A DNA stretch of 64,000 nucleotides, from NCBI GenBank assembly GCA_002724735.1, contig PBPT01000082.1, positions 41,016 to 105,015 of the forward strand. The letters run 5' to 3'. Below are positions 19,973 through 43,053 of the stretch, in pieces. Position 1 is the stretch's first letter. Each line of letters opens with the position of its first letter. Under the pieces are notes generated by a model. It made no database searches. It had not been told where the DNA came from and saw only the letters and a list, made by a program, of their open reading frames with translations. This DNA comes from Fidelibacterota bacterium (GTDB lineage Bacteria; Fidelibacterota; Marinisomatia; Marinisomatales; TCS55). A program made the position numbers and the translations under genes.

Positions 19973-21778
19973 TCAGTTATTTACTATGATTAGTTTTCCA
20001 AATTCTGGCAAGTATAGATACTCAATATCACTGGTAGCAAGTGTGCGTATTGCATCATCAAGGGTTTCTACTAATGGTTCACCGCCTAAGTTAAAACTTG
20101 TGTTAAAAATAATTGGAACGTTTGTTTTATCTTTAAATGCTTTAATAATATCGTAATAATGTGGATTTTGATCTCTACTTACAGTTTGAATGCGACAAGT
20201 TCCGTCTACATGGATAATTGCAGGAATTTTTTCTTCTACACCTTCTTGACAATTTACAGCATACATCATTGTAGGACTGCTATCCATTCCTCGTAAATCA
20301 AACCAATCATGTGCATCTTCTTCTAGTATACTGCCAGCAAAAGGCCTGAAATATTCTCTACGTTTTACTGCATTTACAAAATCTTTTCCGTCTTTATAAG
20401 TAGGGTCAAACATCAAGCTTCTATTACCTAATGCACGTGGTCCATTTTCTGATCGCCCTTGAAAACAAGCAACAATATTTTTTGTAGTCATAAGTTCGAC
20501 TACATCTTCATGATTTGCATCTTTAATTTCAGCATCATATTTTTCAACTGTGCTATAAATTTCTTGTTCTGAATATTCATATTTAGGACCTAAAAATACG
20601 TTATCTGCTCTTGCATTAACTTTTGTATCTTGGGATACTTTATAATGCTGAAGTAATGCCGCACCCATTGCTGTGCCTGCATCATTAGAAATAGGCTCTA
20701 CATAAATTTCAATGCCTTCATCTTTTAAAGCTTCTAAGTAATGATAATTAGCTACACAGTTTAAACCGTATCCTCCGCTTATCACAACTTTTTTACATCT
20801 TGATTTTTCAACAGCATGTCTAATTAGCTTTACTACTGCTTCTTGTGTTTCTTGTTGTACAGCATATGCTAAGTCTCTTCTATTTTCTAAGTAAGTAACA
20901 TCTTCCTGATCAAATGCTAATTCTTCATTATCTAACTCTGCATACATTCCTTTGTTAACAACAGCTCCATTAGGATATCTTGGTACTATTAAACTTCTAC
21001 TAGTTGTTGGAATTGGTAGTGTTACTTCGTTATCCATAATAGCAGGAATATTATCGTTAGGTTTACCGTAGGGTGAAAGGCCCATAGTTTTACCTGCTTC
21101 AATAGCTTGAAAGCCACAGTATTCAGTAACAGCTTCATATGCTTTAACAATTCCTGCACGATCATGAATAAAAGCAGTATAATTTGTATTAGGCTCGCCC
21201 CAATTAGTGGCATCCCAATTATCAACTACTGCACCTGGTATAGCTTCTCTTGCACCTATACTTTTGTGTAGAGTTTTAAATTTATCAGGATACTGACATT
21301 TGTAAATACTTTCTGTTTCCCAAATAGTCATACTATTGCCCTCGTGGGTCAATGGAAAAAACGTACCAGCTCCATCAACAATAACCGCTACAGCTTCGTC
21401 AAATCCTGATCTATAAAAAGCCATTGCCGCATGCATTTTGTGATGATACATTGCTACATCAATTACTTCTGCTCTGCTTGATGGATCTTGTGTATGCAAT
21501 AAACCTATTTTTCTAGCTAAACCTGTGTAAACATCTTCACCAGAGTAATCTAATTTACCAGCAGTTTCTTCTAATCCAGTAGTATGTGCAATTACTAAGT
21601 AATCTAATCTGTCAGTATATTCTTTTATTTTAAGAATACTAGCCAATGGTCCGCCATCGTATTTTAATCTAGTAAGTCTTTCTTCTTCGATACTAAAAAC
21701 AATTTTGCCATCTTTTAACAAACATACACCTGCGTTATGTCCTCTAGCTATTCCTGCGATCCATATTGGTTTAGTCAT
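19973..21778 (-). CDS. Carbamoyltransferase, NodU/CmcH family
   Basis: 601 aa. N-terminal ASKHA-like region (IAGIARGHNAGVCLLKDGKIVFSIEEERLTRLK, ISGGYGLNCVAN). C-terminal blocks GPRALGNRSLMFDP, REYFRPFAGSILEE, HVDGTCRIQTV and FNTSFNLGGEPLV are typical of the family. Confidence 0.85.
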   Translation of the reverse strand: MTKPIWIAGIARGHNAGVCLLKDGKIVFSIEEERLTRLKYDGGPLASILKIKEYTDRLDYLVIAHTTGLEETAGKLDYSGEDVYTGLARKIGLLHTQDPSSRAEVIDVAMYHHKMHAAMAFYRSGFDEAVAVIVDGAGTFFPLTHEGNSMTIWETESIYKCQYPDKFKTLHKSIGAREAIPGAVVDNWDATNWGEPNTNYTAFIHDRAGIVKAYEAVTEYCGFQAIEAGKTMGLSPYGKPNDNIPAIMDNEVTLPIPTTSRSLIVPRYPNGAVVNKGMYAELDNEELAFDQEDVTYLENRRDLAYAVQQETQEAVVKLIRHAVEKSRCKKVVISGGYGLNCVANYHYLEALKDEGIEIYVEPISNDAGTAMGAALLQHYKVSQDTKVNARADNVFLGPKYEYSEQEIYSTVEKYDAEIKDANHEDVVELMTTKNIVACFQGRSENGPRALGNRSLMFDPTYKDGKDFVNAVKRREYFRPFAGSILEEDAHDWFDLRGMDSSPTMMYAVNCQEGVEEKIPAIIHVDGTCRIQTVSRDQNPHYYDIIKAFKDKTNVPIIFNTSFNLGGEPLVETLDDAIRTLATSDIEYLYLPEFGKLIIVNN

Positions 21779-22747
21779 TTAATATCCTGTTGTTTCCATT
21801 AAGTTTATATCATTTTCAAAACAATAATTTCTTACTTGCTCTCTAAAGGTAAACAAATCTATGTCCGGCACTGATTTATAAATGCTGTTTATGCCTTTGA
21901 TTATACTACTTTGTTTATCATTAAATTTAATATTTTTCTTCAAAGCTGGCAACAATATTTCCAATAGCCACGAAGCCGCGCCGTCTGTAGAAGGATGAGG
22001 ATCCCACCAATAAGGTTGCTGTTTCTTTGTAGAAGCATTTGTGTTACCAAACTTGTATACACGATTAGAGTCGGTTAAGAATTGTTCCTTTCCTAATTTT
22101 TGTCCTTCCCAAACATGATTACCAATAGGTTTTAACCAATACTCTTTATTATCATTCCATATCATGTTTACATAATGTTCAAATTCAGGATATCTTTCTA
22201 GTAGATTACCTTCTGCATCAGTTGATTCTCCGTCGCCATTAAAATTTAAAAAATCTGCACCTAATTTTTGAAAATCTCCTATACTAGTCATAAACCATGT
22301 ACAGCCTACAGATTTTAAAAGTGCTTGAGCAAGTGTTATTGCATTTAGTGAATACATAACGTATGTCTGCTCACTAAAAAAATGATCTAACCATACTCTG
22401 TTATATATAGATGTATTATGCATGTTAAACATAGAACCTTTAGTTAACCAAGCCGATTCTTTATTTTTTTCCGGAAGTCCAGAATCTATCCAAGTCTTAC
22501 TAGTTTTTTTGAATAAGTGATAATCATTTCTTAAATGGGAAGACCATTGTACAATTATTGTATCGTCTTTTGTAAATTTGTTTTTTGAATGGCATTCAGC
22601 TAATCTCTGTGCAATACCAAGATTGCCTATACCAGGAAGCCCCCAGTTTTCTGCCTTGTCATAATCTGTATCGTAGCATAGTATTGTTGCCCACGTCGGC
22701 CAATCAACTAGAGAGAAACTACAACCGAATGTGAAAAGTCTAGCCAA
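21779..22747 (-). CDS. SGNH/GDSL-like hydrolase-fold protein (tentative)
   Basis: 322 aa. N-terminal FTFGCSFS resembles block I (GDS), GIGNLG resembles block III, and WWDPHPSTDGAASW resembles block V (DxxHP). Confidence 0.4.
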   Translation of the reverse strand: MARLFTFGCSFSLVDWPTWATILCYDTDYDKAENWGLPGIGNLGIAQRLAECHSKNKFTKDDTIIVQWSSHLRNDYHLFKKTSKTWIDSGLPEKNKESAWLTKGSMFNMHNTSIYNRVWLDHFFSEQTYVMYSLNAITLAQALLKSVGCTWFMTSIGDFQKLGADFLNFNGDGESTDAEGNLLERYPEFEHYVNMIWNDNKEYWLKPIGNHVWEGQKLGKEQFLTDSNRVYKFGNTNASTKKQQPYWWDPHPSTDGAASWLLEILLPALKKNIKFNDKQSSIIKGINSIYKSVPDIDLFTFREQVRNYCFENDINLMETTGY

Positions 22748-22749: not shown

Positions 22750-23685
22750 TTACTCGCCTAAATGCTTATCGATTTCTTCTACAATATGGGTTTCTATTTT
22801 GTCATTCATTTGCATAATGCCTTCGTTTACTCTGTCTGAAAATTCATCTACAGTCACTCTAATCGGGCTGTATACTCTTGAAAGTTCGCCCATGTCCATT
22901 ATATTAAATGATTCACAATTTGGATAGGAAGTATTAATAGGAAATGTACTTCCAATGACAACCGTGGACGGAATACCTGTTGCATAAGCAAGATGTTGTC
23001 CTACACTATCACAGCCCACAAAGTAATCAGCTTCGGCTATTAATGCTGTCCAAGTTCTCAAATCAGTTCCTTTAGGTACAGCAATTGGTCTGTCTACACC
23101 ATGTTCTTTAAAGTCAATAGCTATTTCTCCCATAAAAATTATACCATAGTTTTTAGAAAGTGCCTTAACCATGTTGACTAAATTTGTAGGCTCAATACTT
23201 CTACCGCTAAAATCTGTTAGCATGCCGCCTTCTTCAATAATACCTTTACCAAAAGGTTGAATAACAATTATTTTTTCTCTTTCGGTTTTTTCTCTTACTT
23301 CTTTTATTACTGTAGAAGCCCGCATAAGTTCACCTTTACTAAGCTTAATAGTGGGCTTAGGTAAGTCTCTTACACCTTGATTGTTGATTGCAATATCATA
23401 TGCTTGTGATAAACTGCATTTTTGATTATAGTATTCCCAAACCCTGTATGGTTCTGGACTAAGCATATTCATATCTTTGAGCTTATCTTCGAATAAATTT
23501 TTGTGCCAATGATCATATGCTTTTGCATGTAGCACAGGATGTCCTTTAAAAAAATCAGAACCTCCCTCACATACAACTAAAAAGTTGTCATCTGGATTTT
23601 CTTCGTGAAACTTTTCAAGTGCAGGAATCGAGCAAACAACTCTTCCTGCTCCACCATTAATAAAAATTGCAGTGCTTCTTGCCAT
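22750..23685 (-). CDS. Glycosyltransferase family 9 (heptosyltransferase-like)
   Basis: 311 aa. FINGGAGRVVCSIPALEKFHEENPDDNFLVVCEGG and ALIAEADYFVGCDSVGQHLAYATGIPSTVVIGSTFP parallel WaaC/WaaF blocks (..SMGDVLHTLPAL.., ..FVVSVDTGLSHLTAALDRPNITVYGPTDP..). Confidence 0.7.
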   Translation of the reverse strand: MARSTAIFINGGAGRVVCSIPALEKFHEENPDDNFLVVCEGGSDFFKGHPVLHAKAYDHWHKNLFEDKLKDMNMLSPEPYRVWEYYNQKCSLSQAYDIAINNQGVRDLPKPTIKLSKGELMRASTVIKEVREKTEREKIIVIQPFGKGIIEEGGMLTDFSGRSIEPTNLVNMVKALSKNYGIIFMGEIAIDFKEHGVDRPIAVPKGTDLRTWTALIAEADYFVGCDSVGQHLAYATGIPSTVVIGSTFPINTSYPNCESFNIMDMGELSRVYSPIRVTVDEFSDRVNEGIMQMNDKIETHIVEEIDKHLGE

Positions 23686-23775
23686 ATTTATAGATCCTAT
23701 CGTTAGTAAACATAGTAGTTAATTGCTACTATGAATATTTAGCGACCAAAGATTTATAAATTAGATAAAGTGACT

Positions 23776-24819
23776 TTATTCTACTGCTGTTGATAATGCT
23801 GGATTATAAGTTTTTTCAGCTTCTTCAAATGCATGTGCATCTTCTGTATCTGTTGCTACACTATTAGCTTTAGTAACTTTTTTCCAGCTTGTAGGTCTTG
23901 TAAACAATGGTGATTCTCTCCATTTTACTTTCCAAGGATCAACTTGTTTAACTTTAGTAAGAGTAACTTTTGCTCCTGTTCCGCTTCCGTTTGTTACAAA
24001 GAAACATTCTGTGTAAACTGCGGCTTCTGGATGATATAATGCTCTCTTATTTTCAACACTAAACTCTGTAATTGCTCCTGAACCACTTACTTTAGTAACA
24101 GTAAGTTTCACTTCGTCAACTACTTGTGTGTTTTTATATTTAGGATCTTGTACTAATAACACATCTCCGACACTATAACCAGAACCACCTGTTGGCACTG
24201 TAGCTGTCCATGCAACACCAACTGTTTCAGTAATATCTCTTAGATATGTTCTATATTCTTGTATTTTTGTAATTAATCCTGAAGGCAAATCTTCACTGTA
24301 AAGTCTATCACTGTTCTGTAACTGGTTGTCTCTAAAAGCAACTTTCTCTTCCCATGTCATAATAGGTTTTCTCCAAGGTAACGGAGTTACCCATTGCTCT
24401 GCTTGAGGAGAATACTCAATTTCTGTAATTTCGTAAGTATGATTAGGTACGGGATACTTATCTCTTACATATGGTGTATCTTGTCCTGGTACATCTTCTT
24501 CTATGTCAGGAATTGAATGGGGATCAACGCCTTCAAATAAGCCAGCTATAATACATTCAGTATTAGAATCTTCAGGTCTTACTTCTACCATATAATGATC
24601 ACCTTGTGGAAATGGTATCTCGCCATTAAATAATTGCTGACCTACTTCTCCTCCTGATTCACAACGTATAAGTTTATTTGTAATACTATCAACCCATACA
24701 TATACTTTATCAGGACCTTTGTAAATTACTCTTGCTTTTTTACCTAGGTCGTTAGTTTGGTGATATATATCATCAGGTAAATCGTAAGTAAATTCTTTTG
24801 TTATTTCATTTATAGCCAT
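23776..24819 (-). CDS. Tail-fibre-assembly-chaperone-like protein with one GSGY module (paralog of 26391..27062)
   Basis: 347 aa. Shares ..YKGPDKVYVWVD.. and ..FRDNQLQNSDRLYSEDLP....IQEYRTYLRDITE.. with the 223-aa ORF. The second block matches the R..LL..sD......w..YRq.LRD pattern of phage tail assembly chaperone domains. Also contains TGGSGYSVGDVLLV. Confidence 0.5.
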   Translation of the reverse strand: MAINEITKEFTYDLPDDIYHQTNDLGKKARVIYKGPDKVYVWVDSITNKLIRCESGGEVGQQLFNGEIPFPQGDHYMVEVRPEDSNTECIIAGLFEGVDPHSIPDIEEDVPGQDTPYVRDKYPVPNHTYEITEIEYSPQAEQWVTPLPWRKPIMTWEEKVAFRDNQLQNSDRLYSEDLPSGLITKIQEYRTYLRDITETVGVAWTATVPTGGSGYSVGDVLLVQDPKYKNTQVVDEVKLTVTKVSGSGAITEFSVENKRALYHPEAAVYTECFFVTNGSGTGAKVTLTKVKQVDPWKVKWRESPLFTRPTSWKKVTKANSVATDTEDAHAFEEAEKTYNPALSTAVE

Positions 24820-24828: not shown

Positions 24829-25629
24829 CTACCAGTATACCACATAAATCATTCCGCCGCCACCAACGCCGCCACATCTACATGTACCGTCATTAGTCCA
24901 GCCTGTCATTCCTCCACCGCCTGGGTGCATGCCCATCATCATACATGCTTGTCCACAACAACTAGAGTATGATCCACAAATGCCACCATGGCAACTGTTA
25001 CAGCATGTTGAAGTACCTTGTGGTCTAGGTCCTGGTGTACCGTATGCACTACCTACATGTTGCCAACCTGCTTCGATACAAAATTGGCTACTACGATATG
25101 CACCTGTTACACTAGTTTGACATTCTAATGTGGTTATTCCTGAACCACTTATATAATTGTTTGAACAACATGCACACATAGAACAACAAGAATAACAGTT
25201 TGTAGCTAAATGACACCTTGTATATCTAGCAGAGCATAATCCGCCTTCTACGCACATACACCAAGTTCCGTCACCATTACAAACATATGACGAACATCCG
25301 TGGAATCCTGCACAACAACTCATATTAGCACCAGATGTACCAGCTGAACACATTCTAATTTGATCGCCTGCAGAAACATCAGTTTCGACCATCATATAGC
25401 CGCCACCGCCGCCACCGCCGCCTTGTGTACAACAACAGCTATAGCCACCGCCTGCACCGCCGCTCCATACTTCAAATACTGCCTTTGTTACACCTGCTGG
25501 CACTGTCCAAAGATAACAACATCCTCCGTTGTGTGGTAACCATTTATTTGTATTTTGTATATAAAATTCTTGTGGTTTGATAACACCGCCTGTTTCGTAA
25601 CCGTATATTAAATTTGTTAATTGACTCAT
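24829..25629 (-). CDS. Cys/Gly-rich protein C (glycine-rich fibre-tip-like domain)
   Basis: 266 aa with 31 Cys (my count), including CC/CCC clusters and a G8 run. Shares HNGGCCYLWTVPAGVTKAVFEVWSGGAGGG..CCC, ..QIRMCSAG.. and C-terminal GGGGMIYVVYW with its two paralogs. Confidence 0.7.
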   Translation of the reverse strand: MSQLTNLIYGYETGGVIKPQEFYIQNTNKWLPHNGGCCYLWTVPAGVTKAVFEVWSGGAGGGYSCCCTQGGGGGGGGYMMVETDVSAGDQIRMCSAGTSGANMSCCAGFHGCSSYVCNGDGTWCMCVEGGLCSARYTRCHLATNCYSCCSMCACCSNNYISGSGITTLECQTSVTGAYRSSQFCIEAGWQHVGSAYGTPGPRPQGTSTCCNSCHGGICGSYSSCCGQACMMMGMHPGGGGMTGWTNDGTCRCGGVGGGGMIYVVYW

Positions 25630-25639
25630 GTTCTATTCC

Positions 25640-26389
25640 TTACGATGCTACGTGCCATTCTACTATAATTAAACCTCCGGCTCCTGCCGCACCACAACCG
25701 CAATAGCTGTTATGACTTGACGCCGTTCCGCCACCGCTGCCTGGCCAATAAGCATATCCTTGTTGTCCACAACCACAGCAATAACCTGAACATGCGTCTC
25801 TTGCTGGACGGAAAAAATCTCCTGTAAATGGTGCTTGTGGTGCCCAGTTCCATGCTGTTCCTGAACAAAATGCTGTACCTTTAAAAGCACCGGACATTCC
25901 GCATATTCCAAATCCGCCACACCATGAGCCGCATTCATATGCTGAACAACCCATATAGCTGTTTCCAATTGGACCCCAGCAATAATTACATCCTACTTTA
26001 CCTGCACTTGCACAAATAACATTAGCGGCTTCTGTTACACCATAAGCATAACTAGGATATCCTGGACATCCAGTGTTTGTATTTGCACAAGTAGTTGAAC
26101 CGCCTGCACAAAATCTGTACTGCTGTCCTGCTACAGTGTTAATAATTTTTCTTGCATAGCTTCCTGCTCCGCCTGGAATACCAAAGAAACAGCAACAGTT
26201 ACCTGCGCCGCCTCCGCCGCCGCCCCACATTTCCACTGCAAACCATGTAACGCCAGTTGGTACTGTCCATAAACAACAGCATCCGCCATTTTCCATATTG
26301 TCTACACTTGTGTGATAGACTACCATTGAATCAACAGCTACGGTGCCGCCACCGCCTCCATATTGTAACATTGTTTTCAGTGCTGACAT
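25640..26389 (-). CDS. Cys/Gly-rich protein B
   Basis: 249 aa with 23 Cys. ENGGCCCLWTVPTGVTWFAVEMWGGGGGGAGNCCC, QYRFCAGGS, and C-terminal GAGGLIIVEW. Confidence 0.7.
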   Translation of the reverse strand: MSALKTMLQYGGGGGTVAVDSMVVYHTSVDNMENGGCCCLWTVPTGVTWFAVEMWGGGGGGAGNCCCFFGIPGGAGSYARKIINTVAGQQYRFCAGGSTTCANTNTGCPGYPSYAYGVTEAANVICASAGKVGCNYCWGPIGNSYMGCSAYECGSWCGGFGICGMSGAFKGTAFCSGTAWNWAPQAPFTGDFFRPARDACSGYCCGCGQQGYAYWPGSGGGTASSHNSYCGCGAAGAGGLIIVEWHVAS

Positions 26390-26390
26390 A

Positions 26391-27062
26391 TTATTCTGCC
26401 TTCGTATCTGGTGCTAACGGAAATTCAACTTTCCAAGCTTCTACTTCGTCTGATTCACCTTTTTTATAAACTGTTGGTAGATCCCTAAGTGCTTGTCTGT
26501 AAGTAACCCATGGTGTTTTTACAGCATCGGGCATATCTGGTGAAATTTTACCGTCGGAAGCTTCTAGCTGTGAATCTCTTTGTAATATAATGTCATCCCA
26601 ATCAACTGGTGAAGTTTTGTAACCTGCTGACCATGTTTTTGCATCTAAATCATAAACACATTCGCTTTCGTCGACGTATGTTTCTCCAATTTCTGGCTTA
26701 CCATTATATTTTATGGTGTAATCACCGTATGTTTCTGTAACTGTTGTTTGATCATTTGTTACAATAGTTGAATCAGCAACTCTAAAAATTGCCATCATTA
26801 AAGGATCATCTGCAAGAGTTACTTCAACTCTTGTAGTACCTACTGGTACAGGAACATCTGCTCCTTCATCTCTTTCTGTTAGTTCTCCTGGACTTCTAAT
26901 TCTTTTGCCCTTGTTGTCACCGTCTGTATCAACAAATACATAAACCTTGTCTGGTCCATTGTATGTAGCAGAAGCTGTTAGTCCATCACTATCACTAGAA
27001 TCAAACATCTTGTTTGGCAATTTGTAATCAAATGTTTTACTAGCTATTGTATTTTCTGGCAT
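26391..27062 (-). CDS. Tail-fibre-assembly-chaperone-like protein (paralog of 23776..24819)
   Basis: 223 aa. ..YNGPDKVYVFVD.. and ..LQRDSQLEASDGKISPDMPDAVKTPWVTYRQALRDLP... Confidence 0.5.
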   Translation of the reverse strand: MPENTIASKTFDYKLPNKMFDSSDSDGLTASATYNGPDKVYVFVDTDGDNKGKRIRSPGELTERDEGADVPVPVGTTRVEVTLADDPLMMAIFRVADSTIVTNDQTTVTETYGDYTIKYNGKPEIGETYVDESECVYDLDAKTWSAGYKTSPVDWDDIILQRDSQLEASDGKISPDMPDAVKTPWVTYRQALRDLPTVYKKGESDEVEAWKVEFPLAPDTKAE

Positions 27063-27081
27063 TTTCTTTCCTCACACATTA

Positions 27082-27888
27082 TTAATTATAGTATACATAC
27101 ACTTGGCCACCGCCACCTGGTTGTCCATCACAGTGTGAACCTCCGCAAGCTATTCCGCTTGTTCCTGGTCCTCCAGGAAATTTATTTCCTGTAAATGGAT
27201 CACCACTTGTACACATTACATATCGTCCTTGTTGATACCAACAAGAACATAAATCTTCGTTCATTTGTCCAGGCTGATTAAATCCTGAATGGGTCCAATA
27301 ATAATACTGCGTATGACAGTATGTATTTCTTGTACCATGCCCACCAATACCTGGCATAATTATTCCTTTGTTAGCATCTGCAACATAACCTTGTGTAGCA
27401 CTAGATGAACCGCCTTGTATTCTTCCAAAACAGCAAGTATATGCATTGTATGGGCTCTGGAACCCTGGCTGTTGTGATCCTTCATCACCTCCACATGCAC
27501 AAATTATAGTTGCGGCCGCTGTTACATCATAAACATATGATGGACAACCATAACAGCTAGTATTTGATTTATTATATGCACAACCAGTTGACGATCCTGC
27601 ACAAATTCTATATTGACAACCTGCTTGGGTATCCATTTGATACCAAACATAAGAACCACTAGTTCCTTGATAAGCTTCAAAACTACAACAACATCCATCA
27701 TTACCTGATGAACCACCGCCCCATAGTTTAAACACAAGACTTGTTATACCTGCAGGCACAGTCCACAAACAACAGCAACCTCCGTTGGCGGCACTTGTAT
27801 GCGATGTATTCCATACTCTAAGTCTTTGAGGTATGTTACCTACGCTTTGTGGTCCTATATCGGCCAGTAGTGTTGTTAAAGCAGTCAT
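27082..27888 (-). CDS. Cys/Gly-rich protein A
   Basis: 268 aa with 21 Cys. ANGGCCCLWTVPAGITSLVFKLWGGGSSGNDGCCC, QYRICAGSS, and C-terminal GGGGQVYVYYN. Confidence 0.7.
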   Translation of the reverse strand: MTALTTLLADIGPQSVGNIPQRLRVWNTSHTSAANGGCCCLWTVPAGITSLVFKLWGGGSSGNDGCCCSFEAYQGTSGSYVWYQMDTQAGCQYRICAGSSTGCAYNKSNTSCYGCPSYVYDVTAAATIICACGGDEGSQQPGFQSPYNAYTCCFGRIQGGSSSATQGYVADANKGIIMPGIGGHGTRNTYCHTQYYYWTHSGFNQPGQMNEDLCSCWYQQGRYVMCTSGDPFTGNKFPGGPGTSGIACGGSHCDGQPGGGGQVYVYYN

Positions 27889-27913: not shown

Positions 27914-28234
27914 TTATGAGCCACATAATACCCAACCATAAGTAGCCCCAGAATACACTAGTATCGGCGAAGCATTATTAATATCAATAATAAGATCCGA
28001 AGCATCATTTTGAATTTCTTGCCCGTTTCTTGCTACTGTGATATTTGACGATCCAGCTGTTCCAGAAATATCAACTACTTGAATAGTATCATTTTCTGTT
28101 GGACTTGCTGGAAGGGTTACTGTAATGCCACCAGCTGTACATAAAATACGCTGATTAACTGCCGCGTTTACACTAGTACCTGTGACAACATTTGTAGTTG
28201 CGTAGTTAAGTGTGCTTGTTAAATATCTTCCCAT
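27914..28234 (-). CDS. Small hypothetical fibre-module protein
   Basis: 106 aa, beta-rich (..GGITVTLPASPTENDTIQVVDISGTAGSSNITVARNGQEIQ..YGWVL). CATAAATA box at 28252..28259 upstream. Confidence 0.45.
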   Translation of the reverse strand: MGRYLTSTLNYATTNVVTGTSVNAAVNQRILCTAGGITVTLPASPTENDTIQVVDISGTAGSSNITVARNGQEIQNDASDLIIDINNASPILVYSGATYGWVLCGS

Positions 28235-28254: not shown

Positions 28255-28572
28255 TTATGCCGTTGTCTCAATACCCATAGCTACTACACTTACGTTGCTT
28301 GAGCTAGCGTATGCAACTATTTTCTTACCGGCGTCAACGACTATACCAGTGCGTTCTAATACGTTTTTTGGATTCAGTTCAACATCATACTCAATGTACT
28401 CATCTGCACCTGGAGTGCTTGTATCACAAATTGCTAAACGAAGCAAGACTACGGCGTTGCCTCTATTGACAAAATTAACACTAGCTACTGCATAGGTGCT
28501 TGCCGGACAAGTGTAAATATCAGTATTCGTTGCGCCTGTTAAATCCGCTGTTCCTAATCTTCCTGTGGCCAT
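28255..28572 (-). CDS. Small fibre-adjacent protein, member of a 3-copy paralog family (105/109/121 aa)
   Basis: 105 aa. Shares its layout with 38720..39049 and 42680..43045. Each copy lies directly downstream of a fibre gene. Confidence 0.5.
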   Translation of the reverse strand: MATGRLGTADLTGATNTDIYTCPASTYAVASVNFVNRGNAVVLLRLAICDTSTPGADEYIEYDVELNPKNVLERTGIVVDAGKKIVAYASSSNVSVVAMGIETTA

Positions 28573-28586: not shown

Positions 28587-31500
28587 TTATGCGTTAATAA
28601 ACATATTTAAGGCTACGGGTGATCCACTCACCCCACCTGTATAGTTTACCTGTGCTGTTATATTTATCTCTTGATTGGTTGTATGCGATATTGTCTGACC
28701 AGTTATATTAACTTGACCAGCAGTAATCGAGTTCACATTTAGTTCACCAGCACCGCCACCAATTTGACTTGCTATATAAGTTTTAATAGCTCTCTGTGTT
28801 GGAACAATACTGTCACTGTTGGCTGTAAACGTACCATCAGTTGAAAACTCAGTAATTGTGGCACTAGTACCACCTAAACTTATTTCACCGAGTTGTAATT
28901 CTTGTAATCCACTAACATTAAAGGCATCAGCATTTAGTGTTGCTCTACCTGTAGACTGTTCAACGCTGAATAATTCTCCTACTCTAAAGTTACCGTCCTG
29001 ATCAGTTGAGGTATAAAATACTCTACCACCACCAAAATCTTTAGTCTCGTCTGTTTGATCAGCTGGTGTACTTGGAGTTCCAGGATAGTTTGTAGTTGTT
29101 GTATTACCAGTACCTACGTCTAAGAAATCATGTCCTGTTAATCTAACCTGACTATATCTTCTACGTATAGTTATACCTTCATCATGTTCTGGTGCTTCTG
29201 TTACAGTAATATCTGGACTTACTTGTAGTAATGCTTCATAATTACCCGCACTACCAGTTACTTGTGTTACTCCTACAAGTTTATACCATTTTCCTGCTAT
29301 ACCTGCAATCTCTACATTAGCTCCTTGTACTGGAGTTTCAGTTAAGTTTTTAACTTTGACATATTGTCCAGGTTGATAGTTATCTGCATAACCATTTGCT
29401 GATGCTACTGTAGCTGTAGCAGTTGTATATCCTGTACCTCTGTTACTAAAAGTAGGTTGTCCTAACACACCGCTACCTGTCCTTACTGTATGAGGTACGT
29501 CAACAGTATTATTAGGATCAGTCAGTGTCATTGTTGGTGTACTACTATATCCAGAACCAGGATGCCAAATCTTAATTTGTGTTACTTTTCCATCTTCAAT
29601 TTTTGCTCTAGCTTTAGCAATATCAGCATATGCACTTACGCCGCCGCCGCTAAACACTACTCTAGGTTCAATTATATATTCTGTAGTTGCATCAAGAGCT
29701 GATACAATACCTGCTCCGTATACACTATCCCAACCTGCTGTTCCGTCGCTGTTTTTTAACACTGTTGCGACTTTTGTGCCTGAATCATATGTATTAATAT
29801 ATGCATATTGACCTGCACCTGTGCCGCTTACAATCCAAATAGCCATACCTGCATACATTGCATTTGTTGCGGTATCTGTGTTACTAAGAGTAATTTGTGT
29901 TGCTGTGCCTACTTGTGCATTATTAGTAGCGGTTACGTATCCAGCGCCACCTAAATCGCTTGATGGGTCTGTAAGTCTAACTTGATAAACAGCACCGTTA
30001 TAAACATTTTCTGCACTTATAGCCGCATCATTATTGCCTCCGACTATTGTTGTAGTTGTATCACCATCTGCATAGCTTACTCCTGCATTTAAATATTCAA
30101 AGAATAGTATCTGATTTTTGTCAGTAACTATATTTTCAATTTTAGCTTCTGTTGACTGGTTAGTAACTTTACCTGTCACTGCTGTTTCTGTGCTATCAAT
30201 ACCTTCTGCTACACATCCAAAGTCACCATATGAGCTGTTACCGTTTGTTGCACGTATCTTGCCGCCGTTTTCTGATAGATATCCTATGTGTGCATAATAA
30301 GAGAACACACTAACAAGTTCTGCTCTACCTAAGTTTGTTACCCAAGCACCAATACCATCACTAATAATTTGTGTAAAGTCGTTTGCAACTATTGAGTCAT
30401 TTCCGCCGTCATGTAGGTCTCCGTCAATCTTAAGACCAATACAACCTGTACCAAATGTTGTTACATTTTGTATATATGGGGATCTAGTTAAAATATGTGC
30501 ATCTGTATCTGCTGGACCATATCCTGGATCTAAGCTAATATATGCACCTGCACTTGGTCGTTTAGTACCATAGGAGTTTGCACTACCTAAAGTACCAGAC
30601 AAGCCACTTACTGTACAGTTTCTTAAGCCTGAACCGTTTCTCATAAAGAACATATTTTCTGTACTAGAGCCACTTACAGAGTTGCTATACAACAATGCCG
30701 CATTTATCATTCTCCAGTTTCCTGTATATTCTAAATCATATTTCATTGCGTCAATATATCTGTTAACATCTCTTGTACAAGCCGCTATAGTATATGTGTA
30801 GCTAGGATATTGCACTGCAATATAAGCATGTACTTCTGCAACTAAAAATGTTCTGTTAGCTTCTATAGCTTCTATAGCATATCTATAACCTGTATCATAT
30901 GTAGGTGTATTTGTACCTCTGGTTGTAGGAACTGTGGAATCACCAGTTACTCCATTTACCCTATAATCAATATAGTCTTCAAGTTCTTGGAATAATGCTG
31001 TAGCCGCAGTACCTGCCGCACTTGAACCTGCGGGTCTTGATGTTACTTGTGTTTCAGCATTTCCTGCTGATTTTGTAACTGAACCGTTTGTTACAATATC
31101 ACTTATAATTGCTTTTAATCTTTGTATTGCCGCTATACTTTTTGGCACATCAGTAGCTTGTGTTTGCTGACCTGCTGGTTGTATTTTTGTTGAACGTAAT
31201 TCGTCACCTATCAATGCTGTATTTGCAGGGCATAGTATAGGAAGAGTTTCTTGAAATGTTCCGCTCTTAATATAGAGTGAATTGTTAGGTATCACAGCTG
31301 ATGCCATATTTGTTGTATTACCAGCTGTCACTGCCGCTGTTAAAATATTAGCTAAACTTGTTGCAGTTGATAAATCATCTGACTCTTCTGTGTAATTTGT
31401 ATCTGTTTGCTGTGTAGCTGTTACAGAACCTTGCAAAGTTTGATAATCAGATGCTGGAGCCGCATTGCTTAATACTGCATCTGCAACAACTAATACTCTT

Positions 31501-33359
31501 GCAATCATTGCATTAAATTCTGTTATTTTACCAGTAATAGTTGCATCTGCATGTATAGCTGTAGTTAACTCTCTTGTGCGTACATTGCCTCCGTGACTCA
31601 AATCATAAACAAGTGCATCAACTAATCTACCAACAAATTGCATCCATGTTGCCTTAGTATATGTGAACGAACCTGTATATGGACTTGTGTTATTTGCTAT
31701 TCCGTGATCTACGAATTCAACAGCATCGTGCATTATGTAACTTCTATTAATGTGTAACAGTCTCTTCGCCGCAGGACGCTGTGCTCCGTCCCATAATTGC
31801 TGTGTTGCATATTGTATTGTTTTCCACGGACGATCTAAAGTAAGTCCGTATGCACTCGCTGGACTATCTACTCCAGCAGTAGGATGTACATAATAAACAT
31901 TGTTTAGCCTACCAAAGTAACCCCATTCTGGTGCATTACCAGCGGCATTTACTTTAAGTACTTGTCCTTCAGCACCAATTGGTAATCTTGTAGGACCTGC
32001 ACCACTATAGTAAACTAAATCACCTTGTGTAGTTAAGTTGCCTGATTCTGCACCTGCGACTAATGCATTCCAGTACACACCGCCTGTGTCATTGTCTGGA
32101 CGTTTAGCTGTATCAGATGTGTGAGCTAAAATACAAACATAGCTGTTAACACCATATCTAATAGAATCACCTTTATCATATAGTGTAGCTGTTGCCCATG
32201 CATTTTTCCATTTAAATCCTTCGTTAAGGAGTTCCCAGTATGTTCCGTTAGGTGGTCTTTGTCCTGTATGATCTTGTATACATAGATATGTAAATCCGCC
32301 TAGTCGTACTACATCACCTACTCTATATTCTTCTGCAGAACTATCATCTCCCCAATCTTGGGCATGTTTGAATCCTGTAGTAAATAAAGACCAGTCTGTT
32401 GAATTTGCTGGTGGATGACCTTGACCAACGTTATTTGTTTTAGAAACATATGAATAACCGCCGTAAGTAACAAAGTCGCCTGGTTGATATGTTGTTGTAC
32501 CACTCCAACTATCTTCAAATTCTAAACCTTCAACAAACTGTGACCATTTATTTTCGTCGGCTGCAAAAGTAGATTGGCTTGTGTGATAAGTGATACAAAT
32601 CCATGTGCCGCCGCCATACTTAACAATGTCATTTATTTTGTATCGTGTATTCGTTGACCAGTCTGTTTTGTATTCTAATCCTTTGTTTAGATAGTCCCAT
32701 TTACTTTGATCATTTTCTAAACCTAAACCTACAGAAGCCGCTGACGTGTGTCCTTGATTACAGACATATACTTGTCCGCCATAACGTACTATGTCATTTA
32801 CGACATATCTAGTATTAATGTTCCAATCATTTTTCCAGTAAAATCCTTCAGAAAATATATTCCATTTTGCTTGGTCATTTTCTAGTCCTAAAGTAGTTGT
32901 ACTTGCAGATGTATGAGCAGTTACACAAGTATAAATTGTACCGTTATACTTTACAATATCGTTTACTTTATATCTTGTATTAATACTCCAATCAGCTTTG
33001 TAATCAAAACCTTCAGCAAATAAGTCCCAGCTTCCTTGATTAGCTTCTAATCCTAAAGTAGCAGTAGCGGCAGAAGTATGCTCTGCATTTGCTATATATA
33101 GATATCCTCCATATTTTACTATGTCGTTAATTTTGTAAAGAGTGCTTGTAGACCAGTTACCTTTCCACTCAGTTCCATCGGAAATTTTATTCCAATTAGT
33201 TGCTTGGTTAGTAGAAAATAGTGCTGGAGCAGTATGCCCTTTAATACAAATATATGTATTACCGCCATTTCTAACAATATCATCTTTGTAGTAGGTCGTG
33301 GAAGCTGTCCAATTATTCTTCCATATAAACCTAATTCTACCTAATTTAAATTCAGCCAT
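28587..33359 (-). CDS. Giant tail-fibre / host-recognition protein (paralog of 33393..38318)
   Basis: 1590 aa. Eight N-terminal ~55-aa repeats (W..T.Y..NDIV+YGG..Y.C...HTS). The central block ..TRSPYIQNVTTFGTGCIGLKIDG..ANDFTQIISDGIGAWVTN.. suggests a parallel beta-helix. The C-terminal block YSQVRLTGHDFLDVGTGN..GGRVFYTSTDQDGNFRVGELF is shared with the paralog. Confidence 0.65.
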   Translation of the reverse strand: MAEFKLGRIRFIWKNNWTASTTYYKDDIVRNGGNTYICIKGHTAPALFSTNQATNWNKISDGTEWKGNWSTSTLYKINDIVKYGGYLYIANAEHTSAATATLGLEANQGSWDLFAEGFDYKADWSINTRYKVNDIVKYNGTIYTCVTAHTSASTTTLGLENDQAKWNIFSEGFYWKNDWNINTRYVVNDIVRYGGQVYVCNQGHTSAASVGLGLENDQSKWDYLNKGLEYKTDWSTNTRYKINDIVKYGGGTWICITYHTSQSTFAADENKWSQFVEGLEFEDSWSGTTTYQPGDFVTYGGYSYVSKTNNVGQGHPPANSTDWSLFTTGFKHAQDWGDDSSAEEYRVGDVVRLGGFTYLCIQDHTGQRPPNGTYWELLNEGFKWKNAWATATLYDKGDSIRYGVNSYVCILAHTSDTAKRPDNDTGGVYWNALVAGAESGNLTTQGDLVYYSGAGPTRLPIGAEGQVLKVNAAGNAPEWGYFGRLNNVYYVHPTAGVDSPASAYGLTLDRPWKTIQYATQQLWDGAQRPAAKRLLHINRSYIMHDAVEFVDHGIANNTSPYTGSFTYTKATWMQFVGRLVDALVYDLSHGGNVRTRELTTAIHADATITGKITEFNAMIARVLVVADAVLSNAAPASDYQTLQGSVTATQQTDTNYTEESDDLSTATSLANILTAAVTAGNTTNMASAVIPNNSLYIKSGTFQETLPILCPANTALIGDELRSTKIQPAGQQTQATDVPKSIAAIQRLKAIISDIVTNGSVTKSAGNAETQVTSRPAGSSAAGTAATALFQELEDYIDYRVNGVTGDSTVPTTRGTNTPTYDTGYRYAIEAIEANRTFLVAEVHAYIAVQYPSYTYTIAACTRDVNRYIDAMKYDLEYTGNWRMINAALLYSNSVSGSSTENMFFMRNGSGLRNCTVSGLSGTLGSANSYGTKRPSAGAYISLDPGYGPADTDAHILTRSPYIQNVTTFGTGCIGLKIDGDLHDGGNDSIVANDFTQIISDGIGAWVTNLGRAELVSVFSYYAHIGYLSENGGKIRATNGNSSYGDFGCVAEGIDSTETAVTGKVTNQSTEAKIENIVTDKNQILFFEYLNAGVSYADGDTTTTIVGGNNDAAISAENVYNGAVYQVRLTDPSSDLGGAGYVTATNNAQVGTATQITLSNTDTATNAMYAGMAIWIVSGTGAGQYAYINTYDSGTKVATVLKNSDGTAGWDSVYGAGIVSALDATTEYIIEPRVVFSGGGVSAYADIAKARAKIEDGKVTQIKIWHPGSGYSSTPTMTLTDPNNTVDVPHTVRTGSGVLGQPTFSNRGTGYTTATATVASANGYADNYQPGQYVKVKNLTETPVQGANVEIAGIAGKWYKLVGVTQVTGSAGNYEALLQVSPDITVTEAPEHDEGITIRRRYSQVRLTGHDFLDVGTGNTTTTNYPGTPSTPADQTDETKDFGGGRVFYTSTDQDGNFRVGELFSVEQSTGRATLNADAFNVSGLQELQLGEISLGGTSATITEFSTDGTFTANSDSIVPTQRAIKTYIASQIGGGAGELNVNSITAGQVNITGQTISHTTNQEINITAQVNYTGGVSGSPVALNMFINA
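32025..33330 (-). repeat. Eight tandem ~165-nt coding repeats (approximate bounds)
   Basis: They encode the repeated W-x2-T-x-Y-x3-D-I-V-x-Y-G-G-x-x-Y-x-C-x3-H-T-S units of the 1590-aa protein. The units are divergent copies. Confidence 0.6.
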
Positions 33360-33392: not shown

Positions 33393-36300
33393 TTATATGT
33401 TTGTCCTATCATTTCCGCTATCAGCACCATGAGTAAAGTATTGCATTGCCGCTATTGATCCTTTAGTAGGTTTATCATGATGTCCTCTAGCAGTTAAATG
33501 TATCATATTACTAGTAGTTGACATAGTGTCTGCTGTAACACTAATTGAACCCGACACAAGTTTGTTAGTGTTTGCATTACTACTACCACCTGATACTCTT
33601 GATTGCAAATATTTTCCTATTGCTCTTTGTGTAGGTACAATAGTATTTGCATTAGCAATAAATGTAGGCTCTTTCGAAAATTCGTTAATTATAACTTGTG
33701 TTCCACCTACTACAATTCCGCCTAGTGTTAGCTGTGTCAATCCAGTTAAAGTAAAGTAAGAAGCATTAAGTGTAATAATACCTGTATCTTGTTCAACTTT
33801 AAATTGTTCACCAACTCTAAAGTTACCGTCTTGGTCTGTCGAAGTATAAAATACTCTACCAGCATTAGCTTCTCTTACTTCGTTTTGTTGTTGTGGATCG
33901 TTTGTAGCATTATAGCCTTCTACATATCTATTAGGATAATCTGTGTCTCCTATGTTACCAGAACCAACATCTAAGAAATCATGTCCTGTCAATCTAACTT
34001 GACTGTACTGTTGACGTATAGTAATAGCAGTATTATGCTCAGGCGATTCTGCTCTACCTAGTGTAGGACTTATAGTCAGTGTTAGATTATAATTTCCTGA
34101 ACTTCCTGATTGTGCATCGATGCTAGAAACTTTATAGTCAACATCGTTTATTCCGCTTATTACTAAGTTATCGCCTGGTCCGGGAACTAAACTTACTCCT
34201 TTTAGTTTTAATGTGCCTCCTATTTGGAAACTATCTGCATGACCAAAACCTGCTATTGTACAAGAAGCAGTAATGTAAGAAGTACCTCTGTTACCAAATA
34301 CTGGTTGAGGAAGAACGCCATCGTTTATTCTTGCTACTTGTACAGAATTAATTGTTGCTTGTGGATCATAAACTGTCACTGTTGGAGCCGAAGCGTAATC
34401 ACTGCCAGGTTCATATACAAAAAACTCGTTAATTTTATCTGACTTAACTACTGCTCTAGCAAACGGTTTCGCTCCCCAACCTGTGACTAGGTTCCAATTA
34501 GCATTATTGTCTGCAATTACTACCCAATTATTTAATGCTGTACTGTATCCTGCTCCTGACCAACTTGCACTTTCTGTTGCAAGGTAATCAGAACTATCAT
34601 CACTTGTAATTCTCCATACAACTCCGTCTTGTGACTTTGCTAATTGATTACCTGTACCTATGGCCATAAATGTTCCGCCACTTGATTTGCCATCTACTAT
34701 ACCTGATTGTCCTTTGTGTCCTTCACTGTAAAAAATTCTTGTAAAGTCAGTAGAGCCCGGTATACTGTATTCATACCAATATATTCCATCAAAACTTATT
34801 GCTGTTTTAGTTTCTGTGCTTACATCACCCGGGTCTATAGCAACAAATCTACCATTACCAAAAATGACGTCAGTGTAACCAACAGGTAATCTTCCTGTTG
34901 CTCCTGCGTCATATTGAGTAGACAAACCTGATGAGAATCTAGTAGTGTTAATTGCAACACCTCCTTTTGAACCTGTGTTTAAATAAACAAATGTTCCATC
35001 TGGACCTCCTACACCTGGACCGTATGCGACCTTAGTATAACTGTATAGTGCCGAATCATTTGATGCATTAGTTGGCGTATGGTATTGATAGCTTCCAAAA
35101 TTATTACCTGAGTACCAAACTCTATAATTACCAAAAGCAAATCCTGTACGCTGATTTGTATCACCTGGTATAATTGCGCCATCTTTTAATTCAACCCCTG
35201 CCATATTTGCAGTATAAGAAGGTAAACTAGTTGCATGTGATTTTGCCGCTACACCGAATTGATATATTGTCCCTGCACCTCCTGAGCCTCCGTTGTCTTC
35301 CGCAAAAATTAATACTTGACTACCCCAAGAATCATATTGCACTGCGACTACATCCTTCCCTGTAAATCTCACTGCTGGAGTACTCCATGTAATTCCGTCT
35401 GCTGAATGTGAAGTATACGTATCTCCAGCACCACCTGCTGTTACAGCTACAAAGCAACTTCCAGCATCGAACCATATTACCTCTTTCCATATTGTACTAC
35501 TTGGTGCAGTAATCTGTGTAGCAGTTAATGGATGATCACTAAATGTAACTCTTGGTTCAATACTGTATCTTGTATTTGTGCCTAGTAATGTTTCAATAGG
35601 CCAACCTGGATTTATATGATCCCATCCTGCTGAACCGTCTGATTCTCTACTTACTTGTGCAACTTTAGATACATCGTTATAACTAGAAATATATCCATAT
35701 TGACCTACACCTACACCAGAATTAATAAAAATTCTCATGCCATTGTATTTTGACGGACTACCGTCTGTATCTGCGGCCGCTAAAGTAATACTTGTTGCAT
35801 CACCGCCTTGAGCATTATTCAATTTATATTGATAATTATTTCCGCCTGCCGCACTTGAATCACCAGGGTCTAGCAATCTAATTTCAGATACTGCGCCATC
35901 TCTAGTTTCTTCGTATGTAGCTGTTGCATTTACACCTTGTCCAGCAAAAGTAACTGTTGAAGCGTTTGATCCGCTTGCTTTATTTTTATAAGTTCTACCT
36001 GCATTTTTATATTCTAATGCTAGTATCATATTTTGATTATCAGTTATAACATTTGCACTTGCTTCTGAAGCTTGGTTATCCACATTTCCTGTTATTGCTG
36101 TTTCAGTTGTATCATATCCTTCTGCTACACTTCCAAATGTTCCATATGAGTTATTACCATTTGTTGCACGTAGTTTTCCACCTTCATCTGCCAAATAACC
36201 TATATGACAATAATATGTGAATACACTTACTAATTCTGATCTACCGTTATTTGTTGCCCAGTACCCTATACCATCGCTTATTATTTGTGTAAAATCATTT

Positions 36301-40520: not shown

Positions 40521-40635
40521 CTCTTCTCCTCAATACGGGGATCCTGTCCCTCTAGCCTAGTTTTCATCCTTTCGGCTCTTTGCCGGCTAACCACAGTTTG
40601 ACCCTGCAAGTATTGGTCATACGTTGCATTAATAG

Positions 40636-40643
40636 TATTTAGC
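40636..40643 (-). promoter_or_regulatory. Late-type promoter box (GCTAAATA) followed by ~115-nt G+C-richer leader
   Basis: Plus-strand tatttagc. The leader 40521..40635 contains hairpins (GGC-AAAGA-GCC, GGGA-CAGGA-UCCC) and shares a motif with the leader at 44491..44577. Confidence 0.4.
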
Positions 40644-40657
40644 GATTTTCTGGATAA

Positions 40658-42127: not shown

Positions 42128-42144
42128 GTATTTCTCCTATACTG

Positions 42145-42152: not shown

Positions 42153-42156
42153 GGAT

Positions 42157-42678: not shown

Positions 42679-42679
42679 A

Positions 42680-43045: not shown

Positions 43046-43053
43046 GTCTTTTC

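Follow-up and report, generated by a model that had tools for sequence, protein, structure and literature searches.

Three cysteine- and glycine-rich paralogs interleaved with Tfa-type chaperones as candidate tail-fibre tips of an uncultured marine T4-related myovirus

The receptor-binding proteins of marine T4-like phages, including the cyanomyoviruses of Prochlorococcus and Synechococcus, are poorly characterised, and little is known of how cyanophages infect their hosts (PMC9608196). Closest to the proteins discussed here is gp24 of cyanophage Pam3, a virion fibre and receptor binder that forms a trimer; its N-terminal helix leads into a TNF-like sandwich, and 12 glycine-rich motifs build a lattice (PMC9608196, PMC9942802). 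The gene downstream encodes gp25, a Tfa-like chaperone which virions do not contain (PMC9608196, PMC9942802). In Pam3, Cys28 forms disulfides to the baseplate, an example of functional disulfides in the attachment of a cyanophage fibre (PMC9942802). In S16, the adhesin gp38 caps the trimeric gp37 tip and binds the receptor through a polyglycine lattice with variable loops (as described in PMC9608196 and PMC9942802). Here, we analyse three open reading frames (ORFs), hereafter A, B, and C, that encode cysteine- and glycine-rich proteins in a 64,000-nucleotide stretch of DNA (the window; contig PBPT01000082.1, positions 41,016 to 105,015, filed under a Fidelibacterota bacterium), and compare their locus with these systems.

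All three genes are on the minus strand. Protein A (27082-27888) has 268 amino acids (aa) with 21 cysteines and 45 glycines, protein B (25640-26389) has 249 aa with 23 cysteines and 52 glycines, and protein C (24829-25629) has 266 aa with 31 cysteines, 53 glycines, and a run of eight glycines (G8). The ORF sizes, coordinates, and cysteine counts given in an earlier sequence-only reading, together with the CC and CCC clusters and the glycine runs of up to G8, were recounted and are exact. The interval 24829-27888 also holds a fourth gene, at 26391-27062 (223 aa), which is chaperone-like and not cysteine-rich. We think it probable that A, B, and C serve as distal subunits of a tail fibre or adhesin, that Tfa-type chaperones fold them, and that they sit on or near the conserved C-terminus of the fibre, with cysteines that would cross-link a glycine-rich lattice in seawater.

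The cysteine share of the three proteins is 7.8-11.7%, compared with a mean of 0.54% in the remaining window ORFs of at least 150 aa. More than 10 structural-protein ORFs of the window have 0.0% cysteine (e.g. 39054-44016, 46147-48911, and 51755-58683). The composition of the window suggests that cysteine is generally avoided in the virion proteins of this phage, which makes A, B, and C an even sharper exception. Their pairwise identity is 31-35% in a full-length alignment with 49 invariant columns, some of them in the terminal glycine-rich strand, and all three carry the motifs NGGCC(C/Y)LWTVP(A/T)G(I/V)T, W(G/S)GG...CCC, and Q(Y/I)R(I/F/M)C(A/S)AG, as well as an N-terminal M-x-x-L-x-T-L-L segment. 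The sequence-only reading had listed a C-terminal GGGG..(V/I)(Y/I)V among the shared motifs; the LWTVP, W-GG...CCC, and Q-R-C elements do recur in all three, but the C-terminal motif is restricted to A and C, while B ends in GAGGLIIV. The part of B that is best conserved relative to cysteine-poor glycine-rich domains, by both HHalign and hmmalign, is its proximal half (residues 36-129; 26003-26284, minus strand), which reads GCCCLWTVP...WGGGGGG...CCC...YRFCAGG...ICAS. Reading of the sequences reveals no evident signal peptide or membrane segment at the N-terminus of A, B, or C.

Profile alignments and predicted structures place A, B, and C, as divergent members, in the PF21722 (Gly_rich_2) class, which combines a TNF-like with a glycine-rich domain. 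They score 22.9, 23.0, and 18.6 bits, respectively (E 1e-4 to 2e-3), all slightly below the Pfam gathering threshold of 24.3 bits, and the alignments run from position 6 or 7 to position 225 of a profile 226 positions long. Among close relatives, 47 of 50 match PF21722 at E<=0.01, with a best E of 1.2e-10, and a precomputed PF21722.5 annotation is present on 28 of the 51 homologues that a first search with B returned. A hidden Markov model (HMM) of the family also matches a cysteine-poor domain of a bacterial surface protein (P0196) at E 3.6e-16. HHalign of the cysteine-rich against the cysteine-poor alignment gives a probability of 98.2% (E 3e-14) over columns 42-129, i.e. confined to the proximal half. 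A further match of all three is the functionally unassigned family phrog_4205, at E around 1e-20 (A at E 7e-20). An NCBIfam search with the three proteins gave nothing relevant, and searches of PDB sequences with HMM profiles built from 3 and from 50 sequences gave no match even at E<=10.

AlphaFold2 models were built from the 50-sequence alignment for B and C. The model of B has a mean local confidence (pLDDT) of 85 and a predicted TM-score (pTM) of 0.82; that of C reaches 72.6 and 0.76, with low confidence in the cysteine-dense stretches 157-167 and 216-229. The predicted layout is a short N-terminal helix, a TNF-like beta-sandwich that begins at the CCCLWTVP strand, and a distal domain, the part that ordinary family members build as a lattice from extended polyglycine segments. 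In Foldseek searches of the PDB, the best match of B is the Pam3 fibre (7ypx_A, E 2.8e-7; 7yfw_a, E 8e-6), followed by chains Qa and Qb of the mycobacteriophage Bxb1 entry 9d93 and then by the TNF-like plus glycine-rich domains of ALK and LTK. C has the same leading matches, again with 7ypx_A and 7yfw_a on top. Entry 9d93 has been described for its polyproline-II helical bundles, found in the gp33 tail-wing brush and in gp29 tail-spike domains (PMC13243192). Among the predicted viral structures of BFVD, the best matches are uncharacterised proteins of S-CAM3 (A0A1D8KIY1 being the best) and P-SSM2; further matches include the C-termini of many annotated tail fibres ('glycine-rich domain-containing') and gp38 of Syn9. 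The likeness to the glycine-rich domain of phage fibre tips, which had been proposed from the letters of the sequence, is thus upheld by the full-length PF21722 alignment, the HHalign result, and the structural matches to Pam3, Bxb1, and ALK.

The family differs from other glycine-rich domains in its cysteines. Thirteen are conserved in at least 72% of 168 members, namely those at positions 38, 39, 65, 66, 67, 94, 101, 126, 137, 148, 153, 175, and 200 of B. When B is aligned to cysteine-poor repeats with hmmalign, residue by residue, the conserved cysteines appear to replace both hydrophobic core residues and glycines of the distal polyglycine lattice. C94, C126, and C101 align with Ile, Val, Ala, or Pro of sandwich strands in the cysteine-poor relatives, C65-67 sit in the loop following the first glycine run, and C148, C153, C157, C200, C204, and C207 align mostly with distal-lattice glycines. 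The distal segment of B has 21% glycine and about 12% cysteine, compared with 36-45% glycine and 0% cysteine in cysteine-poor members; B keeps the glycine runs WGGGGGG, PGGAG, PGSGGG, and GAAGAGG. Adjacent CC pairs occur at 2.5 times the shuffled expectation, while CxxC and CxC occur at 1.13 and 0.77 times, and histidine makes up 1.7% of residues; lysine and arginine together number only about 8-10 per protein. Along with the parity and covariation of the cysteines given below, the spacing statistics speak mildly against classical chelating motifs, and mildly against a fully paired intrachain cystine set as well.

The arrangement of the genes is conserved across many loci. A scan of IMG/VR returned 241 relatives, and 78 loci were fetched and annotated with local HMMs, about 70 of them complete. 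In nearly all complete loci, the order is Cys/Gly - chaperone - Cys/Gly - Cys/Gly - chaperone - GT9-like - carbamoyltransferase. The GT9-like and carbamoyltransferase genes are inverted in a minority of loci, and two loci have an S-SSM7-type order, i.e. three Cys/Gly genes followed by a single chaperone. The window-type order, with two interleaved chaperones, is seen only in uncultured contigs. Among loci with upstream sequence, the C-terminal 400 aa of the 1590-aa fibre are found in 75 of 75 and the N-terminal 400 aa in only 10. Across 55 non-redundant loci, the three positions correspond to three clean orthologous groups with one member each per genome: group 1 includes A and is the outgroup paralog, while groups 2 and 3, which include B and C, are sisters. 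Identity is 44-48% within a group and 34-35% between groups, and each group keeps its own conserved distal patch (e.g. QGYVADANKG in group 1 and CGSYSSCCGQAC in group 3). On these comparisons, the triplet is ancient and fixed, a pattern that contradicts recent diversifying duplication and fits either obligate co-assembly or three fixed distinct roles.

The sequence-only reading had interpreted the triplication as a set of diversifying tips and had proposed a comparison of alleles for diversifying selection. That comparison reveals gene-wide purifying selection, with ratios of nonsynonymous to synonymous substitution rates (dN/dS) of 0.14-0.32, and the interpretation is wrong because the triplet is ancient, fixed, and under purifying selection. 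At the amino-acid level, the cassette proteins diverge about 1.6 times faster than the linked enzymes, as expected for proteins at the interface with the host. Between A, B, and C, distance matrices are tightly correlated (r = 0.97-0.98), and partial correlations of 0.84-0.87 are left after removal of the GT9-like and carbamoyltransferase signal. Such mirror-tree correlations are high for all cassette genes and are weak evidence only. Tandem triplets are also found in further independent lineages (the S-SSM7 type and locus L092), while P-SSM2 carries only two paralogs. Cysteine-poor tandem triplets of glycine-rich-domain genes follow fibre genes in Syn9 (gp36/gp38/gp39; L004, 13856-17328) and in a contig from a Tepidisphaeraceae metagenome-assembled genome (MAG; L091, 48-3441); as annotated, Syn9 gp39 looks like a frameshifted tandem duplicate of gp38.

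Both ORFs interleaved with the paralogs are, by their profile matches, chaperones of the Tfa type, as in the gp24-gp25 pair of Pam3. Chaperone-like protein 1 (26391-27062, minus strand; 223 aa with 1 Cys) is of the Tfa/Phage_tail_APC type and scores 34.4 bits against PF16778 (Phage_tail_APC), above the cut-off of 26.6. Its paralog, chaperone-like protein 2 (23776-24819, minus strand; 347 aa), scores 21.4 bits, below that cut-off, and has extra sequence after the Tfa motif that chaperone 1 lacks. The two are 30% identical over 195 aa that include the motif (E 2e-17), and both match phrog_9740 (chaperone 2 at E 1e-26) and the tail-fibre-assembly family phrog_4912. The PF16778 and phrog_4912 matches and the paralogy confirm that the neighbours, which had been called chaperone-like from their sequence, are of the Tfa type. 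Chaperone 1 is always located between paralogs 1 and 2 in window-type IMG/VR loci, and chaperone 2 varies from 201 to 496 aa across related loci (L009-L086). Beyond the Tfa motif, chaperone 2 is weakly similar to Gp18 domain I and to head-decoration families. By analogy with the Tfa proteins of Mu and lambda, chaperone 2 may be more than a chaperone, e.g. a protein that is kept on the fibre.

Several lines of evidence indicate that A, B, and C are real genes. Each starts with ATG and has a Shine-Dalgarno-like GGAG or AGGA upstream. The whole locus is near-identical in four marine metagenome assemblies, one of them a Tara Oceans contig, and a protein 99% identical to B is present in Tara Oceans contigs. 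Compared with these near-identical alleles, A, B, and C have at least as many synonymous as nonsynonymous changes in most comparisons. Relative to a locus about 70% identical (L052), dN/dS is 0.19 for A, 0.16 for B, and 0.14 for C, with 0.05 and 0.09 for neighbouring enzymes. The profile search that the sequence-only reading had called for, run with 50 sequences, reaches 1,246 representative clusters at E<=1e-3, a number that drops to 260 at E<=1e-10; of the best 150 matches, nearly all have 240-380 aa with 6-12% cysteine. As such, the earlier view of three true paralogs encoded by real genes stands on their 31-35% identity, their dN/dS of 0.14-0.19, and the 1,246 clusters. Same-strand ORFs in an alternative frame are found inside B (25669-25968, minus strand; 99 aa) and A (27522-27737, minus strand; 71 aa); they are rich in Val, His, and Gln, and are by-products of GGT/TGT-rich DNA. 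In the S-SSM7 record, an overlapping ORF of this kind is entered as a gene, SSSM7_117 (L001, 8401-8730), which is probably spurious.

Homology, fold, chaperone linkage, conservation, and the cysteine-for-glycine mapping are results of the analysis; the place of A, B, and C on the virion, their oligomeric state, and their cysteine chemistry are our proposals. The two Tfa-like chaperones would fold and oligomerise the proteins in the reducing cytoplasm, as gp25 does for gp24 in Pam3. The products, either one heterotrimer or three separate homotrimers, would dock onto the fibre tip or the baseplate via the shared M-x-x-L-x-T-L-L N-terminus. After lysis into oxygenated seawater, the clustered thiols would oxidise to disulfides that staple neighbouring extended strands, and in this way cross-link a lattice that has been partly de-glycinated. 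Adjacent residues of a CC or CCC cluster would face different neighbours in an extended strand, so that several strands could be cross-linked at once into a rigid receptor-binding tip.

A number of observations weigh against this proposal. Against the Pam3 fibre, B and C reach moderate TM-scores (0.55 and about 0.4, respectively), and the helix before the sandwich has only 6 residues in the models (2-7 or 4-9), with the long helical bundle of Pam3 type absent. The distal patches are strongly conserved and not purely hypervariable loops, which fits contacts with subunits or partners no less well than it fits variable receptor binding. Published cyanophage virion proteomes come from phages that lack these gene clusters, and the receptor-binding protein detected in virions of S-SCSM2R (ORF45, from a 2025 paper, with S-SSM7 homologues) could not be linked to the family. 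For the disulfide part in particular, cysteine counts are even in 75 and odd in 93 of the 168 members, the conserved core of 13 is itself an odd number, and the presence and absence of cysteine columns covary weakly (phi mostly <=0.47 for 38 columns in 231 non-redundant sequences).

These last properties are also what cysteines acting as metal ligands (Zn, Fe, or an Fe-S-like cluster) would display, with the fold and the fibre-tip role unchanged: the CCC clusters at 37-39 and 65-67 and other conserved cysteines would form thiolate clusters that nucleate folding in the cytoplasm and might carry trace metal on the virion. The cytoplasm in which assembly happens is reducing, neither the cysteine counts nor the 13-cysteine core has an even-number bias, weak pairwise covariation is expected of ligands that act in groups, and fibre proteins of T4 coordinate metal ions along their axis. 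We nevertheless regard metal binding as rather unlikely, given that the chelating spacings CxxC (1.13x) and CxC (0.77x) are not enriched, that histidine is low at 1.7%, that no metal-binding module was matched in Pfam, NCBIfam, or PDB sequence searches, and that several of the conserved cysteines align with buried Ile, Val, or Ala strand positions. Very unlikely, in our view, is a role outside the virion, with A, B, and C as intracellular or released products (substrates or scaffolds for the modification of glycans or peptides, or decoys) tied to the sugar-modification genes. Their linkage to the GT9-like and carbamoyltransferase genes is invariant, the window encodes a heptose-pathway gene, heptose genes follow the homologous P-SSM2 cluster, and halogenase or 2-oxoglutarate (2OG)-Fe(II) dioxygenase genes are near in Syn9, S-SSM7, and Sf-FS3; enzymes of these types have been proposed to modify co-encoded glycine-rich or tail-collar proteins (PMC2938197). 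Yet the fold and the nearest solved relatives are those of virion fibre parts, dedicated chaperone genes of the Tfa type stand among the paralogs, the cassette invariably comes directly behind a fibre gene whose C-terminus is conserved, the N-termini read as free of signal peptides and membrane segments, and modification by neighbouring enzymes is compatible with a fibre-tip role. An origin of the ORFs as artefacts of frame or annotation in GGT/TGT-rich DNA can be set aside with near certainty. The same DNA does yield alternative-frame ORFs of 71 and 99 aa, and S-SSM7 annotates one such ORF, but such an origin is refuted by full-length conservation between paralogs and among orthologues (some of them below 30% identity with the motifs kept), by dN/dS well below 1, by the Shine-Dalgarno-like motifs that precede the genes, by the confident structure prediction, and by the profile matches to a curated Pfam family.

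How the tips assemble is a question within the fibre-tip reading, which would be refined if A, B, and C formed an obligate hetero-oligomer, e.g. a TNF-like heterotrimer like the A/B/C head of C1q, with chaperone 1 serving A and chaperone 2 serving B and C. We see this as a tentative possibility, well short of an even chance, and somewhat more attractive for the strict 1:1:1 co-occurrence of three clean groups in the 55 loci. The recurrence of tandem triplets in independent lineages (S-SSM7 type, L092, the cysteine-poor L091, and Syn9 gp36/38/39), the common N-terminal segment, the group-specific distal patches (QGYVADANKG and CGSYSSCCGQAC), the correlated distances (r = 0.97-0.98; partial 0.84-0.87), and the trimeric state of Pam3 gp24 (PMC9608196) all point the same way. 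On the other hand, gp24 is a homotrimer, P-SSM2 has two paralogs only, and linkage together with a shared rate can by itself correlate distances. Among the proteins of the window, three or more are large and either fibre-like or structural components of the virion (1590, 1641, and 2125 aa), so that three tips for three fibres are an equally simple arrangement. More specific still, and in our judgement unlikely, is a heterotrimeric C1q-like tip, assembled with the two Tfa-like chaperones, in which a cysteine-stapled lattice with CC/CCC thiols turned to different strands has taken over part of the polyglycine lattice, and which folds reduced and then locks or switches receptor binding upon oxidation or metal capture in seawater. 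If true, it would be a redox- or metal-gated adhesin of a widespread uncultured marine myovirus lineage and of some cyanomyoviruses, and it might in addition be heptosylated or carbamoylated by the linked enzymes.

Upstream of A, the fibre and the Cys/Gly genes are separated by two small ORFs, all on the minus strand. The one nearest to A encodes 106 aa (27914-28234), has PHROG matches to tail and tail-fibre families, and resembles tail-fibre segments; it is kept in all 75 IMG/VR loci with upstream sequence and is identical in the four metagenome alleles. The other encodes 105 aa (28255-28572), directly follows the fibre gene, matches phrog_11338 (tail fibre) at E 9e-11, is present in 74 of the 75 loci, and resembles PSSM2_302 of P-SSM2 by reading of the sequences. 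The fibre itself (28587-33359, minus strand) has 1590 aa with 8 CBM_5_12 repeats (PF02839, E 4e-46; phrog_9851, E 7e-219) and is adjoined by a second giant fibre of 1641 aa (33393-38318, minus strand). The two fibres have 7-8 of these carbohydrate-binding repeats each, located in their N-terminal parts. The 2125-aa ORF of the window matches only as 'virion structural protein'.

Downstream of the cassette, and on the same minus strand, are the sugar-modifying genes. The GT9-like (heptosyltransferase-like) protein (22750-23685; 311 aa) scores 20.9 bits against PF01075, below the 22-bit cut-off; it shares an N-terminal motif with SSSM7_120, PSSM2_307, and SfFS3_102 by reading of the translations, and an HMM built from these four sequences matches a protein in nearly all complete loci. 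The carbamoyltransferase, of the NodU/CmcH type (19973-21778; 601 aa; PF16861, E 6e-58; PF02543, E 1e-29), occupies the same position in S-SSM7, P-SSM2, Sf-FS3, and the IMG/VR loci. Between the two genes, a 322-aa ORF (21779-22747) is present in 57 of 75 loci and has no Pfam or PHROG match. It differs from the four near-identical metagenome alleles by 8-9 nonsynonymous and 1 synonymous changes, while its neighbours have zero or mostly synonymous changes relative to the same alleles. A HldE-like heptose kinase/adenylyltransferase domain is encoded elsewhere in the window, on the plus strand (8017-9156); in P-SSM2, genes annotated as HldE-like, carbohydrate kinase, and phosphoheptose isomerase take up the corresponding position behind its cluster (L002, 11762-16135). 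Targets of the linked enzymes may be the fibre tips, through heptosylation or carbamoylation, or the lipopolysaccharide of the host.

Based on its encoded proteins, we assign the window to an uncultured marine T4-related myovirus. It encodes a T4-type portal and sheath, and the major capsid protein gp23, also of T4 type (44961-46136, minus strand), is closest to those of jumbo phages, with 69% identity to Sinorhizobium phage Phosso, 67% to Vibrio phage 2.275.O, and 65% to Pseudomonas phage PA5oct. Kyanoviridae are not the closest, and an assignment of the window to a Kyanoviridae cyanophage was rejected on this ground. The jumbo-like gp23, set against cultured cassette relatives that are all cyanomyoviruses, suggests that the cassette is shared or exchanged between lineages. 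A search of a genome collection gave six matches only, in MAGs of unrelated phyla (Chitinophagales, Flavobacteriales, Actinomycetota, Methanobacteriota, and others), and these are probably mis-binned phage contigs. The T4 late-promoter motif TATAAATA occurs 6 times in the window, below the shuffled mean, with none of the six in the stretch that leads from the fibre to the three Cys/Gly genes; the closest one abuts the start codon of the GT9-like gene (23685-23692). Scans of the window for sigma-70 promoters and terminators did no better than shuffles.

Relatives of the cassette in cultured phages are few. Nothing among 50,697 phage records matched the block in a megablast search, and tblastn against phage records found partial matches in cyanomyoviruses only. 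The cysteine-rich homologues are SSSM7_114-116 in S-SSM7 (28-30 Cys), 97-99 in Sf-FS3 (25-28 Cys), and PSSM2_304/306 in P-SSM2 (36 Cys each), all annotated 'hypothetical protein', as is the region that tblastn matches in P-SSM5. In the supplement of Sullivan 2010, the S-SSM7 and P-SSM2 homologues are genome-specific hypothetical clusters, from phages without a virion proteome. We found no paper that mentions PF21722 and none on cysteine-rich fibre tips of cyanophages. The sequence-only reading knew of no version of the domain so rich in cysteine: the literature we searched is equally silent, but the databases do hold such proteins, in S-SSM7, Sf-FS3, and P-SSM2 and in the 1,246 clusters. The fold, the family, and the logic of a fibre paired with a chaperone are therefore already known; as far as we searched, no description exists of the variant with cysteine for glycine, of how far it extends, or of a fixed cassette that joins three tips with two chaperones.

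Together, the C-terminus of the fibre, the two small ORFs, the three tips, the two chaperones, and the sugar-modifying enzymes make up a module of about 10 genes, which is a strong candidate for the distal host-recognition apparatus of the uncultured lineage and of S-SSM7, Sf-FS3, and P-SSM2. The replacements suggest that a polyglycine-lattice domain can be rebuilt with cysteine in place of glycine, a point that bears on protein design and on how virions stay stable in oxic seawater, and the fixed triplet is a set on which heteromeric fibre tips of phages could be studied.

The systems compared with this locus share different parts of it. PF21722 proteins, which include tail-fibre C-termini, Bxb1 gp33 and gp29, Syn9 gp36/gp38/gp39, and bacterial surface proteins, are collinear with A, B, and C from end to end and have in common with them the W-T-V-P-x-G-V-T strand, the WGGGG run, a G-x-Y, and the final hydrophobic strand. 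By contrast, the cysteine-poor members P0109 and P0196 have 0.2% cysteine overall and none in the aligned domain, compared with 8-12% in the window proteins. The extracellular domain of ALK and LTK (7LRZ, 7NX1, 7NX3, and others) has the same two-part fold as B (Foldseek E 1e-4 to 1e-3), but these are eukaryotic receptor tyrosine kinases that bind cytokines; the TM-score is about 0.3, they have no sequence relationship to A, B, and C and no chaperone genes, and no comparable cysteine content was seen in them. The gp38 adhesin of T2 and S16 is a functional analogue of what we propose: it, too, is small and stands alone, and its gene comes after that of the distal fibre. It differs in having a beta-helix instead of a TNF-like middle domain, in being monomeric, and in lacking a paralog triplet and cysteine enrichment, and its fold (6F45) is missing from the 50 best PDB matches that Foldseek listed for B or C.

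Among cultured phages, there are S-SSM7, Sf-FS3, and P-SSM2, where the neighbourhood is the same as in the window (fibre, small ORFs, Tfa-like chaperone, GT9-like gene, and carbamoyltransferase) and the Cys/Gly proteins form clades separate from the window groups. The S-SSM7 type has three Cys/Gly genes followed by one chaperone, while the window has two interleaved chaperones. The P-SSM2 type has the order Cys/Gly - chaperone - Cys/Gly, with N-terminal extensions of about 100 aa that are apparently helical on reading of the sequences. Nearest in structure is Pam3 gp24 (PDB 7YPX, 7YFW), the best match of both modelled paralogs, B and C. Like A, B, and C, gp24 is a stand-alone protein of about 250-280 aa in which a TNF-like beta-sandwich leads into a glycine-rich distal domain, and, as in the window, a Tfa-type chaperone gene comes next, whose product has a variable N-terminal domain and a conserved C-terminal motif. 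No sequence similarity between gp24 and A, B, and C is detectable by HMM against PDB sequences, and the long N-terminal helical bundle through which gp24 trimerises and docks compares with a 6-residue helix in the models of B and C. Pam3 has one fibre gene and one chaperone, while the window has three fixed paralogs and two chaperones. Finally, the distal domain of gp24 is 39% glycine, with 12 glycine-rich motifs, while in the window proteins this lattice appears partly replaced by cysteine-containing segments.

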